Below, piece by piece: positions 43,712-50,057 of a stretch of 64,000 nucleotides of DNA. Below the pieces are notes generated by a model, which was given only the letters and a program-made list of their open reading frames with translations, made no database searches and was not told the DNA's origin. How positions within the stretch are numbered: position 1 is the stretch's first letter; the number at the start of each line of letters is the position of its first letter. Position numbers and translations under genes: made by a program. This DNA comes from a virus (lineage: Duplodnaviria > Caudoviricetes): the IMG/VR virus record IMGVR_UViG_2974511964_000001, positions 1-64,000 of that record, one strand, 5' to 3'.

Positions 43712-44248
43712 TTACTTATTACTAATATTTCTAAACTCTTTAATTGCTAGGTTAGCAGCCGCCGAGTGTACTTGGTTCTCAGCAGAATTTAGTGACACCC
43801 ACTTCCAGTCTCCGATGTATTCATCATCATCAAAGTCTGTACTTACCATCTTGTAGTTATCACTAGTTAGTCTAACGATGAAAACATGAGAACGTTCATC
43901 TGTGAAACCCTCTGATAGAGTATAAATTCCAACTCGTTTAAACGCTTTAGGGTCAACTAGCAATCCTGTTTCCTCTTGCAATTCTCTACGAGCGGTAACA
44001 TAGGGGTCTTCATCTTTCTTAATCAACCCTGCTGGAAAGCCAGCAACCGTTTTGTAAAGTGGGCTACGGTATTCATATTCAATTAATACTTTGTTATCTT
44101 TATTAACGACTAGCATTGTGATTGAATCCGACTTTTTAATTATTTCTCGATTAGCTACAACGCCGTTGGCTAACTTAATAGACAAACGATATAAATCAAA
44201 TATAGCACCTTTAAACAGCTTCTCAGAGCTAATTACTTTTGGATTCAT
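43712..44248 (-). CDS. Nudix hydrolase, ADP-ribose pyrophosphatase (NudF-like)
   Basis: Nudix box GLIKKDEDPYVTARRELQEETG; ADPRase-type N-terminus, SEGFTDE and DDDEYI. Confidence 0.88.
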   Translation of the reverse strand: MNPKVISSEKLFKGAIFDLYRLSIKLANGVVANREIIKKSDSITMLVVNKDNKVLIEYEYRSPLYKTVAGFPAGLIKKDEDPYVTARRELQEETGLLVDPKAFKRVGIYTLSEGFTDERSHVFIVRLTSDNYKMVSTDFDDDEYIGDWKWVSLNSAENQVHSAAANLAIKEFRNISNK

Positions 44249-44250
44249 AA

Positions 44251-45357
44251 TTACTTACCTCCATTTTTAATTAGCTCTAAGGCTCTCTCATAGCGTGCTA
44301 GGAACCCTTGTGGGTCAGAGCTGTCACCCTTATCGTCTAAAATAACTACTTTGTCAGAAAACCCCTGATTTGAAATCTCTTCCATTAGGTTGTCGTGAAA
44401 GGCATCCCTAGTGCTTTCCCAATCCATATTTCTAAACCCATCATCAACATATTTAGTTACAGGTGGGATAACGATAATTAAATCCCACTCTTCTTTTTTA
44501 ACCGTATTGGCATAAATCTGAGTAAGGTTTTCATAATCCTCTTTAGGAAGATACATCTTAGCATAGACATTAGTAACCATAGCATCAGTGTCACAAATTA
44601 CAATTCCTTGATTAGCTGGGCTATGCATTTCAGCTTTGTTAGCATCATACTGTCCTTGAAAGAAGTGTGAGTAATCATCAACAGTTAGTTCATCATCAGT
44701 TAGATTATACTTTTCTTCATAGTAACGGGCATACTCGGTACTAAATGGAGCATTAACTGAACGAGCTACGTGTTTAATAAGTGTTGATTTACCAACAGAT
44801 GCTGAGCCAACAACCAATACCTTATAGGTAAAGTGACGCCGGAAAACACGATTGATATAGTTCCAATATTTATGTGGGTCATTGCGAATCATTGTTGCTG
44901 ATATTGGGATTACTTTTCTGTCTTCTAGTTTAGTATGCCATTCAGGTAACAGCTCATGGAATTTGTCATCATATTCTTGTTCGCCTGTGTATACTGTGAT
45001 TTCAGCATCCTTATTTGTAGTTGCTTTATCCACAATTTCTTCGAGTTTTAACAACCAAGGCTTCCAACCGTCAGGATAGCGTGGAATATTATCTTCGTTA
45101 AGCATAGCTACCACAATGTTAGGCTCATCAGCAAAGGCTTCTCTTAAATATCTAAACCGTTTATAAAGTGGTAGTCCGATTTTATCTCCTCGGTCACCTT
45201 TATAGCCGCTTACGACTAGTACAACACCATCGTTAACAGCTAGCGCTCTGTATAAATCTTGTTGATGACCCGAGTGGAATGGTGACCAAGTCCCAAAATA
45301 TACACCAATTTTATTACCTGAAAGTTTATTCTTTGTAATCAATTCTAAATTATTCAT
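44251..45357 (-). CDS. nadR: Bifunctional NMN adenylyltransferase / nicotinamide riboside kinase (no HTH)
   Basis: FGTWSPFHSGH (HxGH), ISATMIR, Walker A GSASVGKS, EYAR, CDTD, YVDDGFR; ATG 45357 after GGGGT, coupled to the pnuC stop. Confidence 0.93.
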   Translation of the reverse strand: MNNLELITKNKLSGNKIGVYFGTWSPFHSGHQQDLYRALAVNDGVVLVVSGYKGDRGDKIGLPLYKRFRYLREAFADEPNIVVAMLNEDNIPRYPDGWKPWLLKLEEIVDKATTNKDAEITVYTGEQEYDDKFHELLPEWHTKLEDRKVIPISATMIRNDPHKYWNYINRVFRRHFTYKVLVVGSASVGKSTLIKHVARSVNAPFSTEYARYYEEKYNLTDDELTVDDYSHFFQGQYDANKAEMHSPANQGIVICDTDAMVTNVYAKMYLPKEDYENLTQIYANTVKKEEWDLIIVIPPVTKYVDDGFRNMDWESTRDAFHDNLMEEISNQGFSDKVVILDDKGDSSDPQGFLARYERALELIKNGGK

Positions 45358-46120
45358 TATTAGATACCCCACTATTGTTTTCCTTTGTGTACCAAACGTA
45401 AGCTCCATAAATTGCATTAATCGTCATAATTATTTGTAGAATAAACATGCTTAATGCAGAAGCTCCACCACTAGTTAACTGAACATACCAAATGTAAATA
45501 TTTAACAAATCTAGTCCAATCCATACGACCCATTGTGAACGGTACCCATATGTCATTAGAATTTGACCAATAATACCAAGTGGCAATACAGCACTATCTC
45601 TTAGAACTTGATTACCATTAAATTTGAATCCAATATAAACATTTACGGCGTAAAGTGCTAGTAATCCTATTACAGTTAACGTAGCTAATAGTGGGGTAAT
45701 CTTTTTACTGATAACACTATCATCATTTGAGCTATTTAACGTTTTATACCAAACGTAGATACCAACGAACTGCATGATAGTATAAAATATTTGAGAAGAA
45801 ATATCCCCAATTAAACGGTTATGCAAAGAAGCAATTAGCCATGATAGGCTACCAATTGTTCCCCACATGAAATTGGTTAGCTTGCCCTTATCTACTAGTA
45901 TTAAACTCATAGCAGTAGCTACACTAGTAATTACTCCAGCATAACCTGAAAAAGAGAAGTCACCTTGAAACATGAAAGCAACAATTGAAGCACCAACCAT
46001 AAGGAACATTAGTAAATACTCCTTATAATTAAACTCTGTTAATTCCTTGATATTACGCTTAATTGAAAACGTATCTTTAATGCCAGTACCTAATAATTTA
46101 TAATCTATATTTTTAGTCAT
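45350..46120 (-). CDS. pnuC: Nicotinamide riboside transporter
   Basis: About seven TM helices; KGKLTNF, GQILM..YRSQWVVWIGLD, NAIYGAYVW; adjacent to nadR. Confidence 0.92.
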   Translation of the reverse strand: MTKNIDYKLLGTGIKDTFSIKRNIKELTEFNYKEYLLMFLMVGASIVAFMFQGDFSFSGYAGVITSVATAMSLILVDKGKLTNFMWGTIGSLSWLIASLHNRLIGDISSQIFYTIMQFVGIYVWYKTLNSSNDDSVISKKITPLLATLTVIGLLALYAVNVYIGFKFNGNQVLRDSAVLPLGIIGQILMTYGYRSQWVVWIGLDLLNIYIWYVQLTSGGASALSMFILQIIMTINAIYGAYVWYTKENNSGVSNNE

Positions 46121-46127
46121 AATTTTA

Positions 46128-46171
46128 TCTCCTATTGTTTTTACTGTGCCGTGGGCGGAAAGAAACGCACA
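46128..46171 (-). promoter_or_regulatory. Compact NAD+-II (pnuC-motif)-like riboswitch
   Basis: UGUGC-GUUUCUUUCCGCC-CACG-GCACA-GUAAAAACAAU-AGGAGA: P1 UGUGC/GCACA, CACG element, A-rich AAAAACAA linker, and loop UUUCC able to pair with the pnuC RBS GGAGA (H-type pseudoknot). Matches my recollection of the class consensus and its pnuC context. Confidence 0.75.
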
Positions 46172-46223
46172 TTTTTATTTAATTTTATTTTCCGTCTATA
46201 TGATATTTAATACTAATCATATC

Positions 46224-46253
46224 TTATGGCGGAGGTCTAAGAGTTATATCCAT
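46224..46253 (-). CDS. Leader peptide uORF MDITLRPPP
   Basis: AAGGGAG RBS (46265-46271) just after the promoter; ATG GAT ATA ACT CTT AGA CCT CCG CCA TAA. Confidence 0.6.
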   Translation of the reverse strand: MDITLRPPP

Positions 46254-46281
46254 ATAGTCTAATTCTCCCTTCTATATAAAA

Positions 46282-46310
46282 AGTATAGCACTAAATATAT
46301 CATTTGTCAA
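46282..46310 (-). promoter_or_regulatory. Sigma-A promoter of the NAD salvage operon
   Basis: TTGACA-17 nt-TATACT with a TG extended -10. Confidence 0.85.
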
Positions 46311-46379
46311 TATAATTATTACTAATATTTATAAATGTATGTTTATTCATATAACTATACTTTATTCATTCTATCAAGT

Positions 46380-47340
46380 ATTGTCCGAATGGTCCCGGCT
46401 TAGAACCCGGCCTAGGCTGAGACTATATAATATTAATAGTGTGTCTTCGTTAGTATTTAGTTCTCAACGTCTTGTGGTCTACGTCCCGCTAGTAGTTTAT
46501 AAGCGTTATTAGTCCAGCCCACCTGATTACCATAAATATGTAATCAAAAATCTTTAAGTTCAAGTTCAAATTCCTTATTATGTATTAATAAATCAATCCT
46601 AAACACATGCTATCATACTTAATCTGTAAAACGGTTTTGACCTTGACTCTCCTGCTGTTCAGAGAGAGGGAGTAAGTGAATGAGATACAGTTAGTCCATA
46701 GATGGATAGTTTAGCGTAAATCTATTACTAGAAATACAATACTAAGCTAAGCTCTATGGACAATAACTGCATAATAACTAATTAACTAATCCAACTGTTC
46801 GTCGGTCGGTCGGTCGGTCATTTCAACAGGAGTTGGTTATTCAAGTCACTACGTATTGCTATCCTAACATTGGTTACTACATTGAGTGTTAAGCGATTGT
46901 TTTCTTCATCATGAGGACTTATCGTCTAGCTTTATTATAATCTATTAGGATAGCTCAGCATCTATACTTGTAATACTAACCTAGCTACCAGCATTCCAGC
47001 CACTGGTAGGTTATTCGCATAAGCAGGTTAATATCTCCACCCGTTTTCAGGGCACTGGAAACCTCTTACAGCATTTATTTAACGACCTGCTACTCGGTCA
47101 AACCCACCACTGCAACTCCTAAACGGTGGGTTCCTAGTCACTTTTATAGAATCGGAGGGACTATTCAAATATGCTCCTGTCTCTTTTTGTTTGGTATCAG
47201 TGAATATTACCTTTAGGTGGTCTCGCCTATTGGGTATCCCTATTAAGTTTTAAAGTTATCTTATAGCTCTGCGCATTTCGGTAACTTCTTTTGTAACTAG
47301 GCTATTTAGTTATCCTCGGTTAGCCGTGTAACCTTATTTT
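46380..47340 (-). ncRNA. Candidate large structured ncRNA (~950 nt), class unknown
   Basis: No ORF of 60 aa or more in six frames; many nested stems; own leftward promoter. Boundaries and strand are approximate. Confidence 0.6.
46801..46819. repeat. (GTCG)4-GTC tetranucleotide repeat in a hairpin loop
   Basis: Directly visible; enclosed by CTGTT/AACAG. Confidence 0.85.
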
Positions 47341-47347
47341 TAATTCT

Positions 47348-47376
47348 AGTATACCATACTCTTTTCAAAAGTAAAC
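47348..47376 (-). promoter_or_regulatory. Leftward sigma-A promoter pointing into the ORF-free region
   Basis: TG-G-TATACT extended -10 with TTTACT/GTTTAC at -35. Confidence 0.6.
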
Positions 47377-47398
47377 CCAATTTATATAGAAAAATTTA

Positions 47399-47427
47399 TT
47401 GACTACTAAATTATATAATGTTACTAT
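47399..47427 (+). promoter_or_regulatory. Rightward sigma-A promoter of the replication module
   Basis: TTGACT-17 nt-TACTAT with a TG extension. Confidence 0.7.
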
Positions 47428-47478
47428 AGTCTATAGAATAAATACATTTCACGGGCATCAATAAGGAGGTGCTATATA

Positions 47479-48540
47479 ATGAATTTAAAAGACCCAAAAT
47501 TTAAAACAGACGATACACCTGTTAAGTTTGCTGATTTTGATGCTTATGTTATCAGCTTAATTTATGACAAATATGTGCAACTTTTTAGACAGAAAGATGC
47601 TGACAATAAGGGAATTGATGCTAGTGTTGAATTAGAAAGAACCGTTGACTCAATTGTTGATAGCAAATTACACTATGCACTGGTTAAAGCCTCCAAGTAT
47701 TTTAGGATTAACCACATTAATCCGGTATATTATTTGTCTGTCGTTTTTAGTAGACACTTATATAATGACAGAAACAAGAAGAGGATTATGAACGTTCCTT
47801 ATGAGGTGGGCCTTGTGTCTGAAACTTATCAGTCGTACTATCAAAACGGCTTAAAGTACGATAGAACTTATCATAAAAACATAAATGGAGTTCCTCATGA
47901 AACAGTAATGTTTCTAGATAATCCCTATATTTCATTTGTGTACCAATACTATGGATTGTTACAGAAGTGTAGATATGATAATGTAGAGATGTCTAAGGAG
48001 TTAAGAACATATCAGTACAATCACTCAATTAAGATTATGACACTGGATGAGAACAAGCTTGATGGCATGTATAGAGAGTACGTAGAGTATAGTCGTAGAT
48101 TAGTAAAGGCATTAAATGTTAGGCATCCAGAGATGTCATTATATGTAATGCAACTATGTAACTATCGCTACCTAGGTGCTATGAACACTCCTATTTTATT
48201 ATTTGGAACATCAAGATATTCTATGAGTGCTATTTCTGATATTAGGTCTGATGAGACAGACAATGAGTTGTACCTTCATTCTCTATTATATGGTTTAAAG
48301 AAGACTTATGACTCTGTGTATGCAGCAACTATTTCAGATGGTGATGAGCTTAAAATAATTAGGGACAACTTACAAACTGACAAAGTGTCAGAGTATTATG
48401 CTATTATCAATATCGGGCGTAAGATTATAGCTTACTTTAGCTCGGACTTGGTAATTAGAACGAAGGCTCGAAAGGTATTTCCTAAGGATTTAAGAGAACA
48501 ATTGTTGGACAGATATGATATGCCAATTATTAATATTTAG
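47479..48540 (+). CDS. Hypothetical Tyr-rich protein, first gene of the replication operon
   Basis: TAAGGAGGT RBS; no recognisable motif. Confidence 0.7.
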   Translation: MNLKDPKFKTDDTPVKFADFDAYVISLIYDKYVQLFRQKDADNKGIDASVELERTVDSIVDSKLHYALVKASKYFRINHINPVYYLSVVFSRHLYNDRNKKRIMNVPYEVGLVSETYQSYYQNGLKYDRTYHKNINGVPHETVMFLDNPYISFVYQYYGLLQKCRYDNVEMSKELRTYQYNHSIKIMTLDENKLDGMYREYVEYSRRLVKALNVRHPEMSLYVMQLCNYRYLGAMNTPILLFGTSRYSMSAISDIRSDETDNELYLHSLLYGLKKTYDSVYAATISDGDELKIIRDNLQTDKVSEYYAIINIGRKIIAYFSSDLVIRTKARKVFPKDLREQLLDRYDMPIINI

Positions 48541-48551
48541 GAGGAACAACC

Positions 48552-50057
48552 GTGACAGAAAGTACAAAAACATTACAAGAACAATTATTAGTGAGAGCAT
48601 TAAGCAGTTCATACATTACTAATGCAGTATTAGCTAGAAACACACCATCACTATTGACTAACCCGACTTATCAGGTTCTAGGTAATATATTAGTTAGATA
48701 CTATGCAACGGACACAAAGCCGATTTCAGAAGCAAGTATTAAGCTTGGAATTGATAGATACTTTAAAGATGAAAACAGACGTAGAAGCCATAAGCATGAA
48801 GACCCATTAACACAGCAAGAAGAGCTAGATATTACCCAGACTATTAATGATGTTATGGAAACTAAGCCAGATAGTTCTGATGAAATCGAAGAGTCACTAG
48901 ATAAATATGTTAAGAAGACTTTAGCTTCTGCTGCTATTCTAGAAGAAGCGCAGCGAGACTCAGATGACTTATCTAAGAGAGTTGAAGAAAAACTTGATGA
49001 TATCAACTCATTAGACATCAATGGTAGTGCGGACACTGTTGTTGATGTTTATCGTGATGTTCGTAAGAAGGCAGAAACATATATTAATGATTTGGGCCAA
49101 GCAAAGATACCATCTGGATTAAAAACATTTGACTATGTGATGAGTGGTGGGCTACAAAAAGGCCAAATTGCAATGATTGGTGGTAAATCTGGATTTGGTA
49201 AAACAGTATTTCTATCTAATCTATCCTACTACTACAGTATGGTATCTGGTCATAACGTTCTACAGGTTAGTTTGGAAGAACTGATGGCAGATTCATATAT
49301 GCGTTTTGATAGAATGCACTATCGAGTGACACCGAGTGACATGTTAACTGGAGATGGTAAAATTGACCCCAATTTCATTAAGAATGTTTTAGCTAAGCCT
49401 CATAAGCCAGATAAAGGAACCCTGTTGTTCAAACGATATACGCCTAATACTTTAACTGTTGATGGTTTACGACAGTGTATTGACACATCAGAACGCCAAA
49501 AAGGATTAAAACTCGATGTGGTTGTACTTGACTATGCAGACTTAATGCGTACAGCTAAGAAATCAGATAACGAAGCTGTTCAGGGTGAAGAGCTATTCCA
49601 AAATCTGTCGAAACTAGCGCAGGAAGAAAATGTTATTCTAATTACGGGTACTCAATTGAACCGTTCTGCCGGTAGCCAAGAAGTTATGACGTTAGAGTCA
49701 ATCGAAGGTTCCTACCGTAAGATTAACACTACTGCATTCGCTGGAACTTTAAACGGGACTAAAGAAGAACGTGATGGCGGTTTCATGCGTATTTATTTAG
49801 ATAAGATTCGTAATCGGTTTGTATCTGATGATTATATGCTATTTAAATTTGATAAGGGAACAATGCTTTTAACCGATGAAACTGATGCCGAAAAGGTAGA
49901 ACACATGTCGCTTATCAACCAAGACGCATCAAATATGAAAGCTCAACGTAGAGCAGAGTATGCCAAAGGCAATGGCAATGACACTAGTAATAGCGAAATG
50001 CAAGATAAAGCAAATGAAATTATGTCTAGTTTAATAGGCGGAAATAAGAAGGCTTAA
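48552..50057 (+). CDS. dnaB: Replicative helicase, DnaB-like
   Basis: GGKSGFGKT, VSLEE, VVLDYADL, TQLNR, DKIRNR. Confidence 0.93.
   Translation: MTESTKTLQEQLLVRALSSSYITNAVLARNTPSLLTNPTYQVLGNILVRYYATDTKPISEASIKLGIDRYFKDENRRRSHKHEDPLTQQEELDITQTINDVMETKPDSSDEIEESLDKYVKKTLASAAILEEAQRDSDDLSKRVEEKLDDINSLDINGSADTVVDVYRDVRKKAETYINDLGQAKIPSGLKTFDYVMSGGLQKGQIAMIGGKSGFGKTVFLSNLSYYYSMVSGHNVLQVSLEELMADSYMRFDRMHYRVTPSDMLTGDGKIDPNFIKNVLAKPHKPDKGTLLFKRYTPNTLTVDGLRQCIDTSERQKGLKLDVVVLDYADLMRTAKKSDNEAVQGEELFQNLSKLAQEENVILITGTQLNRSAGSQEVMTLESIEGSYRKINTTAFAGTLNGTKEERDGGFMRIYLDKIRNRFVSDDYMLFKFDKGTMLLTDETDAEKVEHMSLINQDASNMKAQRRAEYAKGNGNDTSNSEMQDKANEIMSSLIGGNKKA

Follow-up and report, generated by a model that had tools for sequence, protein, structure and literature searches.

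The window analyzed here (the whole stretch of 64,000 nucleotides, nt) corresponds to the left-hand 64 kb of a virus record of 137,973 bp and is ~95% identical to the Lactobacillus plantarum Herelleviridae phages Bacchae, Semele and Lpa804 (genus Harbinvirus). Our subject is a non-coding gap (46121-47478) located between a leftward pnuC-nadR-Nudix operon (43712-46120) and a rightward replication module, and a candidate structured element within it, whose conserved core is designated type A. This gap is the largest stretch without an open reading frame (ORF) of at least 60 amino acids (aa) in the 137,973-bp genome. The lack of such ORFs had been pointed out in an earlier sequence-only reading of the window and was borne out by our analysis: the longest ORFs found in the gap are 57 aa (46339-46512, plus strand) and 38 aa, and none in its core stretch (46600-47345) exceeds 29 aa. 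The G+C content is 0.37-0.41 across 46600-47350 versus 0.27-0.31 in both flanks. All long ORFs from position 1 to ~106 kb are on the plus strand except for the pnuC operon, and the gap holds the sole divergent promoter pair within that ~106-kb block.

The type A core is present in three lineages that share 66-74% identity: the Harbinvirus group, phage LpeD (genus Elpedvirus) and an IMG/VR contig (L081). The features of the locus in the window are as follows (the minus strand assigned to the non-coding parts is the probable one, see below):

46282-46310, minus strand: promoter P2 (TTGACA-17-TG-n-TATACT), serving the pnuC-nadR-Nudix operon and marking where the non-coding stretch ends downstream
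46377-46546, minus strand: variable 3' arm, including the stem 46524-46530/46540-46546; optional and often abutted by an HNH homing endonuclease gene
46547-46671, minus strand: A+T-rich linker with one short hairpin, absent from LpeD
46672-47262, minus strand: conserved structured core, type A (alignments, consensus fold)
46685-46772, minus strand: long hairpin in the core, the same when window and LpeD are folded separately
46801-46819, no strand assigned: tetranucleotide repeat (GGTC)x4-5, in the Harbinvirus lineage only; LpeD and L081 share a different insert there
46842-46970, minus strand: long branched hairpin in the core, the same in both separate folds
46972-47035, minus strand: three-way junction in the core, whose outer helix and CTACCAG hairpin recur in window and LpeD with different sequence
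47036-47059, minus strand: hairpin in the core, the same in both separate folds
47084-47099, minus strand: hairpin in the core, the same in both separate folds
47100-47133, minus strand: hairpin in the core, the same in both separate folds
47263-47341, minus strand: 5' segment that varies by lineage and has two small hairpins (47318-47333, 47294-47312); LpeD and L081 lack it or differ there (alignments)
47348-47375, minus strand: promoter P1, extended -10 type (TTTACT-16 nt-TG-n-TATACT; promoter scan), predicted start near 47341
47399-47427, plus strand: divergent promoter of the replication module (promoter scan)
47479-48540, plus strand: first gene of the replication module, a 353-aa HTH-type protein related to HTH DNA-binding proteins
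48552-50057, plus strand: DnaB-type helicase, next in the replication module

The LpeD homologue of the 353-aa protein shows weak matches to a DnaD-like loader and to HTH_36. A tRNA/tmRNA scan of the 64-kb window found no genes. The core carries no annotation in the public genome records examined; the gap region is not mentioned in the Harbinvirus genome paper, and we found no paper describing it in these phages.

The unit is composed of the conserved core, the lineage-specific 5' and linker segments and the optional 3' arm, with invariant unpaired blocks between the core helices. The third small hairpin of the junction at 46972-47035 is formed in LpeD's own fold. Two copies of a heptamer, AGTCACT (AGUGACU on the minus strand), are present in the same orientation (46844-46850 and 47136-47142), each inside a block invariant across the three type A lineages; the motif may serve in protein binding or tertiary contacts.

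Evidence for the fold was sought in the comparison of lineages. Single-sequence folding gave z ~ -2.5 versus shuffles on either strand, and the comparison with column-shuffled window/LpeD alignments gave z = -7.4. The RNAalifold consensus of a minus-strand alignment of the window, Bacchae, the metagenome contig L097, LpeD and L081 contains 145 pairs, 32 of them with both sides changed yet paired. This covariation among homologues, the check proposed by the sequence-only reading, covers three lineages, and the number of compensatory pairs is well above that expected from the partner-shuffle control (9.3±2.2; 0 of 500 shuffles reach 32) or from partners slid by 1-3 columns (3-8 double-changed pairs). 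A six-row alignment without L081 (window, Bacchae, Semele, Lpa804, L097 and LpeD) yielded 31 such pairs versus 5.3±2.1. Since a consensus fold is fitted to the data, the fold was also predicted from the window alone. For this fold, 25 out of 33 double changes in LpeD keep pairing versus 59 out of 157 slid controls (Fisher p = 8e-5), and for LpeD and L081 combined the respective values are 32 out of 50 and 96 out of 242 (p = 0.003). Window and LpeD folded separately show a matching architecture domain by domain, and core blocks of 20-56 nt are identical or nearly so across these lineages despite their overall divergence. The centre of the core is largely invariant and hence uninformative for covariation. 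Overall, we consider it very probable that the locus contains a real structured nucleic-acid element.

All five stems listed by the sequence-only reading are located where it had placed them, one of them (GCTATCCTAA/TTAGGATAGC) being also recovered in a repeat analysis. Four of the five form the cores of covarying helices; the fifth (46524-46546) falls in the 3' arm, whose consensus structure in MAFFT alignments is weak on both strands.

Two leftward promoters delimit the non-coding stretch. The extended -10 promoter that the sequence-only reading had described as pointing into the region, back to back with the replication promoter, was found at 47375->47348 (P1), with its partner at 47399-47427. 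An extended -10 element is present at the same edge in L081 (the same hexamers) and in L097 (TG-c-TATAAT), and the P1 block is conserved between the window and L081 although the flanks diverge. The leftward promoter of LpeD (TTGACA-16-TG-c-TATTAT, an 11/12 match) has a different offset. Equivalents of P2 occur in LpeD, phage LP65, phage Lenus and L097, and no intrinsic terminator was found between P1 and P2 in any lineage. In Semele, a deletion of ~120 bp (L004:1501-1640, equivalent to window 46250-46370) takes out P2 together with the upstream part of the pnuC leader, and P1, ~1.1 kb upstream, is the only good promoter left for pnuC. Because P1 is all that remains upstream of pnuC in this phage, the arrangement suggests that its operon depends on read-through from P1 and that P1 transcripts cross the region.

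This promoter, which points leftward into the core in the window, L081, L097 and LpeD, is also a stronger argument for the strand than either folding energies or pair counts. The consensus energy for three lineages is -103.1 on the minus versus -88.4 on the plus strand, and the individual sequences of LpeD (-143 versus -112) and L081 (-162 versus -151) behave likewise. From the promoter seen in every lineage and these energies, the element is probably read from the minus strand. A number of observations weigh against a minus-strand structured RNA. The minimum free energy of the window's own sequence is slightly better on the plus strand, the six-row consensus energies are close (-122.1 versus -121.1), and the type A pair counts (142 G.U versus 107 A.C cells) discriminate weakly between the strands; the sequence-only reading, by which G.U pairs lean "mostly, but not always" towards the minus strand, proved accurate on this point. 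Even in the fitted consensus, pairing survives in just 74 out of 104 changed cells (71%), the long-range helices of the prediction are broken in LpeD, and the family is small, with its three lineages. In Logan contigs from four RNA libraries, 46696-47217 is covered at a depth like that of the flanking genes, in runs that had been chosen by this sequence itself and in which strand and ends are not visible. In one wastewater RNA run nearly only the core is covered, at a depth of ~2.

Comparison with known RNA families did not provide any assignment. A search of the whole window with the 4227 covariance models of Rfam 15 at the gathering score returned nothing, and at E up to 10 with permissive filters the region 46000-47600 matched only two snoRNA models by chance (E 5-10). 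No covariance-model match was obtained for ROOL (RF03087), either at gathering or at E up to 10, for GOLLD (RF01998), which in phages and prophages usually neighbours tRNA genes, of which the 64-kb window has none, or for OLE, HEARO and group I/II introns. The same Rfam search on the loci of LpeD, LP65, four siphophages and Staphylococcus phage K matched only annotated tRNA genes. The sequence-only reading had envisaged a phage long non-coding RNA (lncRNA) of a known or a new class and had named a replication origin as the other possibility. The structured RNA as such is supported because covariation across three lineages, a conserved leftward extended -10 promoter and a conserved lack of coding capacity coincide; the known classes are excluded by Rfam, and since these include ROOL, GOLLD, OLE and group I/II introns, the class would therefore be a new one. 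We regard the element as quite likely a minus-strand RNA of a new, undescribed family.

The distribution of type A is narrow. Bacchae conserves the entire gap, and Lpa804 carries an inserted HNH homing endonuclease gene at ~46337, between the element and P2. LpeD keeps only the part equivalent to ~46684-47260, inside a 978-nt gap. The contig L097, found in a metagenome scan, shares arm and core with the window (95% identity) but lacks the pnuC operon, its order being lysin, 149-aa gene, HNH, arm, core, replication genes. The third lineage, L081, was found among IMG/VR loci by a covariance model of the central domain (R1); its core is 74% identical to that of the window and 68% to that of LpeD. 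Beyond the known isolates, type A pattern scans of IMG/VR yielded no more than a near-identical fragment (L046/L007) and L081; scans of 185,579 bacterial and archaeal species genomes gave no matches, and no second copy was found elsewhere in the same genome. A search anchored at the helicase retrieved only the same Harbinvirus/LpeD phages (Lpa804, Bacchae, LpeD) and the short fragment L007. By these sequence searches, type A is a family known only from L. plantarum Herelleviridae.

The same genomic slot is occupied by a different element in LP65 (genus Salchichonvirus), which has the same gene order with a different gap of 946 nt. Over 0.5-0.7 kb this gap is 69-82% identical to unannotated gaps (0.7-1.2 kb) of about nine Tybeckvirinae siphophages, among them ATCC 8014-B2, Lenus, Nyseid, SA-C12, phage P1, phage P2, Satyr and Maenad. 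The loci of this element, referred to as type B, are:

L005:3585-4530 (LP65)
L091:2934-3965
L092:2941-3635
L093:1114-2229
L094:1112-2139
L095:1107-2145
L096:1034-2231

The type B core (~550 nt, minus strand) is a well-supported fold with a clear strand preference. It comprises 116 pairs, 41 of them compensatory versus 23.9±2.9 in shuffled and 1-9 in slid controls; the energies are -92.4 versus -64.0, G.U cells outnumber A.C cells by 130 to 65, and many G.U pairs are invariant. The layout is like that of type A: a non-coding fold of 0.6-1 kb adjoining replication genes, with one leftward promoter on each side, that of the right edge being of the extended -10 type (LP65, Lenus), and without an intervening terminator. 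The leftward operon of the siphophages runs on to the replication protein. Homology between the two types was considered and, within the reach of these tools, rejected: nhmmer gave no match, no 8-mer is shared, and a covariance model built on the central domain of type A, run unfiltered, found nothing. Type B matches no Rfam family and nothing in bacterial genomes, and a type B pattern scan of IMG/VR returned only six known isolates.

A tentative functional reading, by analogy, is provided by the lactococcal phage c2. Its GenBank record contains a 611-bp ORF-free region with early and late genes on either side, annotated as holding the origin, with the early promoters EP1 and EP2 on one strand and the late promoter LP1 divergent. 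In Ceduovirus, the transcript made from the promoter PE1 is non-coding and may initiate replication by a transcription-mediated mechanism; there are three sequence-distinct origin types, chimeras of which do not work, and the origins drive plasmid replication without phage proteins (PMC7150918). The Ceduovirus origin module (c2, bIL67 and 923 types) is portable and relies on the host RNA polymerase (PMC7150918). The order P2, non-coding fold, P1, divergent promoter in the window matches that of c2 exactly and is the same in LpeD, LP65, Lenus and L097. Likewise, sequence-unrelated types fill one slot: type A in the window phage and its relatives of genus Harbinvirus as well as in LpeD and L081, and type B in LP65 and the Tybeckvirinae. 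That type B serves both a myophage and siphophages would be explained by an origin that needs only the host polymerase. On the other hand, the non-coding part is ~1 kb in the window (0.65 kb in LpeD) as compared with ~330 nt between the annotated EP1/EP2 signals, and hosts and phage families differ, origin activity being proposed here by analogy.

Other transcript-primed origins include ColE1 RNA II, the T4 oriF/oriG R-loops and the T7 primary origin, and ColE1 RNA II requires a defined multi-hairpin fold. Shared with these systems are a host-polymerase promoter beside replication genes and a proposed role of a non-coding transcript in starting DNA synthesis; a difference is that the present locus showed no recognisable RNase H site, G-rich hybrid-forming stretch or unwinding element. 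In the proposed mechanism, the host-type promoter P1 (47375->47348) would drive leftward transcription, giving a transcript of ~1 kb without ORF or terminator that would fold into the core 46672-47262 and continue through the variable 3' arm into P2 (46310->46282) and the downstream genes. The host RNA polymerase would thereby make a structured untranslated early RNA beside the replication genes, and this RNA (as an R-loop or primer), or its synthesis, would start phage DNA replication. In such a scheme the structured-RNA and origin readings may be one and the same, an origin acting through a structured non-coding transcript. That the element functions as an origin-region transcript in the manner of c2 is the functional reading we favour over the alternatives considered below, though we hold it only tentatively. 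Several results speak against it. The c2 origin locus, the one Ceduovirus type searched, showed no similarity by nhmmer or covariance model; no iterons, direct repeats or DnaA-box-like repeats were found beyond weak two-copy matches; and GC skew merely follows gene direction and is uninformative as an origin marker. The invariant unpaired blocks, including AGTCACT, suggest tertiary or protein contacts beyond the needs of a primer RNA. No replication origin of a Lactobacillus Herelleviridae phage was found in the literature searched.

The same invariant blocks between covarying helices, with the twice-occurring heptamer, speak for the main rival, a free-standing, trans-acting large ornate RNA with a function akin to that of ROOL, GOLLD or the early lncRNAs of Staphylococcus phage K, which would act through its tertiary fold or as an RNA-protein particle rather than by firing an origin. 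A size of 0.6-1 kb, the many domains and a G+C content above that of the flanks are in line with this explanation. ROOL and GOLLD are present in Lactobacillales phages (PMC12286853), and the element resembles them in being longer than 500 nt, multi-domain, non-coding and phage-borne in Lactobacillales hosts; it differs in that type A has no adjacent tRNA genes and is limited to a few virulent L. plantarum phages, with no bacterial genome. A closer precedent by taxonomy is Staphylococcus phage K (Kayvirus, a fellow member of Herelleviridae), which makes two lncRNAs, one of them from its own early promoter and with the highest read count, i.e. an abundant early intergenic RNA (PMC9241854, Finstrlova et al. 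2022). Its intergenic ORF-free region is likewise ~1.15 kb long, although it is immediately followed by three tRNA genes and neighbours the lysis genes, and the one of the two annotated lncRNA regions that was compared (~1.15 kb) resembles neither type A nor type B in sequence or by model. Together with the lack of an Rfam match, the absence of a terminator that would define a discrete RNA, the lack of tRNA genes nearby and the very narrow distribution, this leaves the ornate RNA as a doubtful yet serious candidate.

The near strand symmetry of the type A compensatory changes would also fit an element acting at the DNA level, either an origin or a single-strand initiation site; its hairpins would arise once the DNA is unwound or single-stranded, and any RNA would be incidental. 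Its position is suitable, adjoining the HTH/DnaD-like gene and the DnaB helicase and being the only divergent promoter pair in the 106-kb same-direction block. However, the analogous type B is clearly one-stranded with invariant G.U pairs, the type A energies over three lineages are 15 kcal/mol better on the minus strand, the inward promoter is conserved in all lineages while iterons are lacking, and a multi-domain structure of ~600 nt far exceeds the needs of known single-strand origins. We consider this explanation improbable.

Nearly the same low standing is given to a long structured 5' leader that would regulate or stabilise the leftward genes by processing, antitermination or control of read-through into pnuC or HNH. 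It would account for the lack of a terminator between P1 and the downstream genes, for the P1 transcript as the apparently sole source of pnuC in Semele and for the HNH gene placed between the element and P2 in Lpa804. But the downstream genes vary by carrier (the pnuC operon; HNH and the 149-aa gene; siphophage early genes) and nearly always have a strong P2 of their own, so the element is not tied to any one gene, and a leader role is quite unlikely. The narrower version, a long leader of the pnuC operon, was rejected, as pnuC possesses a promoter of its own and the element persists in L097, where the pnuC operon is missing. A non-functional remnant (decayed genes or recombination debris with chance stems) would be compatible with the ease with which A+T-rich genomes lose ORFs and with the mosaic 3' arm of little consensus structure, but is hardly credible in view of the near-identical 20-56-nt blocks across divergent lineages and the strong excess of compensatory changes.

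A broader version of the origin-transcript reading, which we think unlikely in its entirety, would have types A and B as unrelated folds of one portable module: a large structured RNA made by the host polymerase that fires or licenses replication without phage-specific initiators and has been swapped between Herelleviridae and Tybeckvirinae of the same host, with the HNH homing endonucleases of the 3' arm driving the exchange. The 3' arm is common, in mosaic form, to the type B phages LP65, ATCC 8014-B2, Satyr, Maenad, SA-C12 and Gut-P1 and is absent from LpeD and Lenus; the arm of the window (46377-46546) is homologous to that following type B in most type B phages. HNH homing endonuclease genes abut the arm in Lpa804, L097, phage P1, Nyseid and SA-C12, the HNH/arm sites being:

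46337-46546 (window)
L002:3216-3836
L097:4349-4975
L093:502-1113
L094:473-1111
L095:468-1106

The Lpa804 arm is closer to that of Nyseid than to the arm of its own genus. The 3' arm looks like a homing co-conversion tract carrying sequence between myophages and siphophages.

To our knowledge, RNA classes of bacteria or phages that exceed 500 nt and have a conserved fold number no more than a handful, most of them without a known function. The element would belong with the large structured phage non-coding RNAs or with the transcript-type origin regions, and is set apart by a narrow distribution and an unusually good experimental accessibility. The locus offers two independent folds in one genomic slot, a clear promoter, cultivable phages, a genetically tractable host (L. 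plantarum) and a concrete c2-like hypothesis. If correct, the latter would also place a replication origin in Lactobacillus Herelleviridae. The portable-module reading, if true, would supply this group with its first origin candidates and add a new class of large functional RNA whose task can be tested. Such an origin could also act as a decoy protecting starter and probiotic strains, a phage-resistance strategy known in the lactococcal literature as 'per'.

Two further non-coding segments of this genome were observed. The pnuC leader (46121-46310) contains a conserved hairpin and GGCGG/CCGCC elements, kept even in LP65 and LpeD, with no match in Rfam. Beyond the window, at G000:C1:132390-133148, an ORF-free stretch of ~750 nt adjoins the upstream side of a nine-gene tRNA cluster (minus strand, 129.9-132.4 kb), in the same position relative to tRNA genes as the lncRNA region of phage K; this stretch is possibly a second large non-coding RNA.

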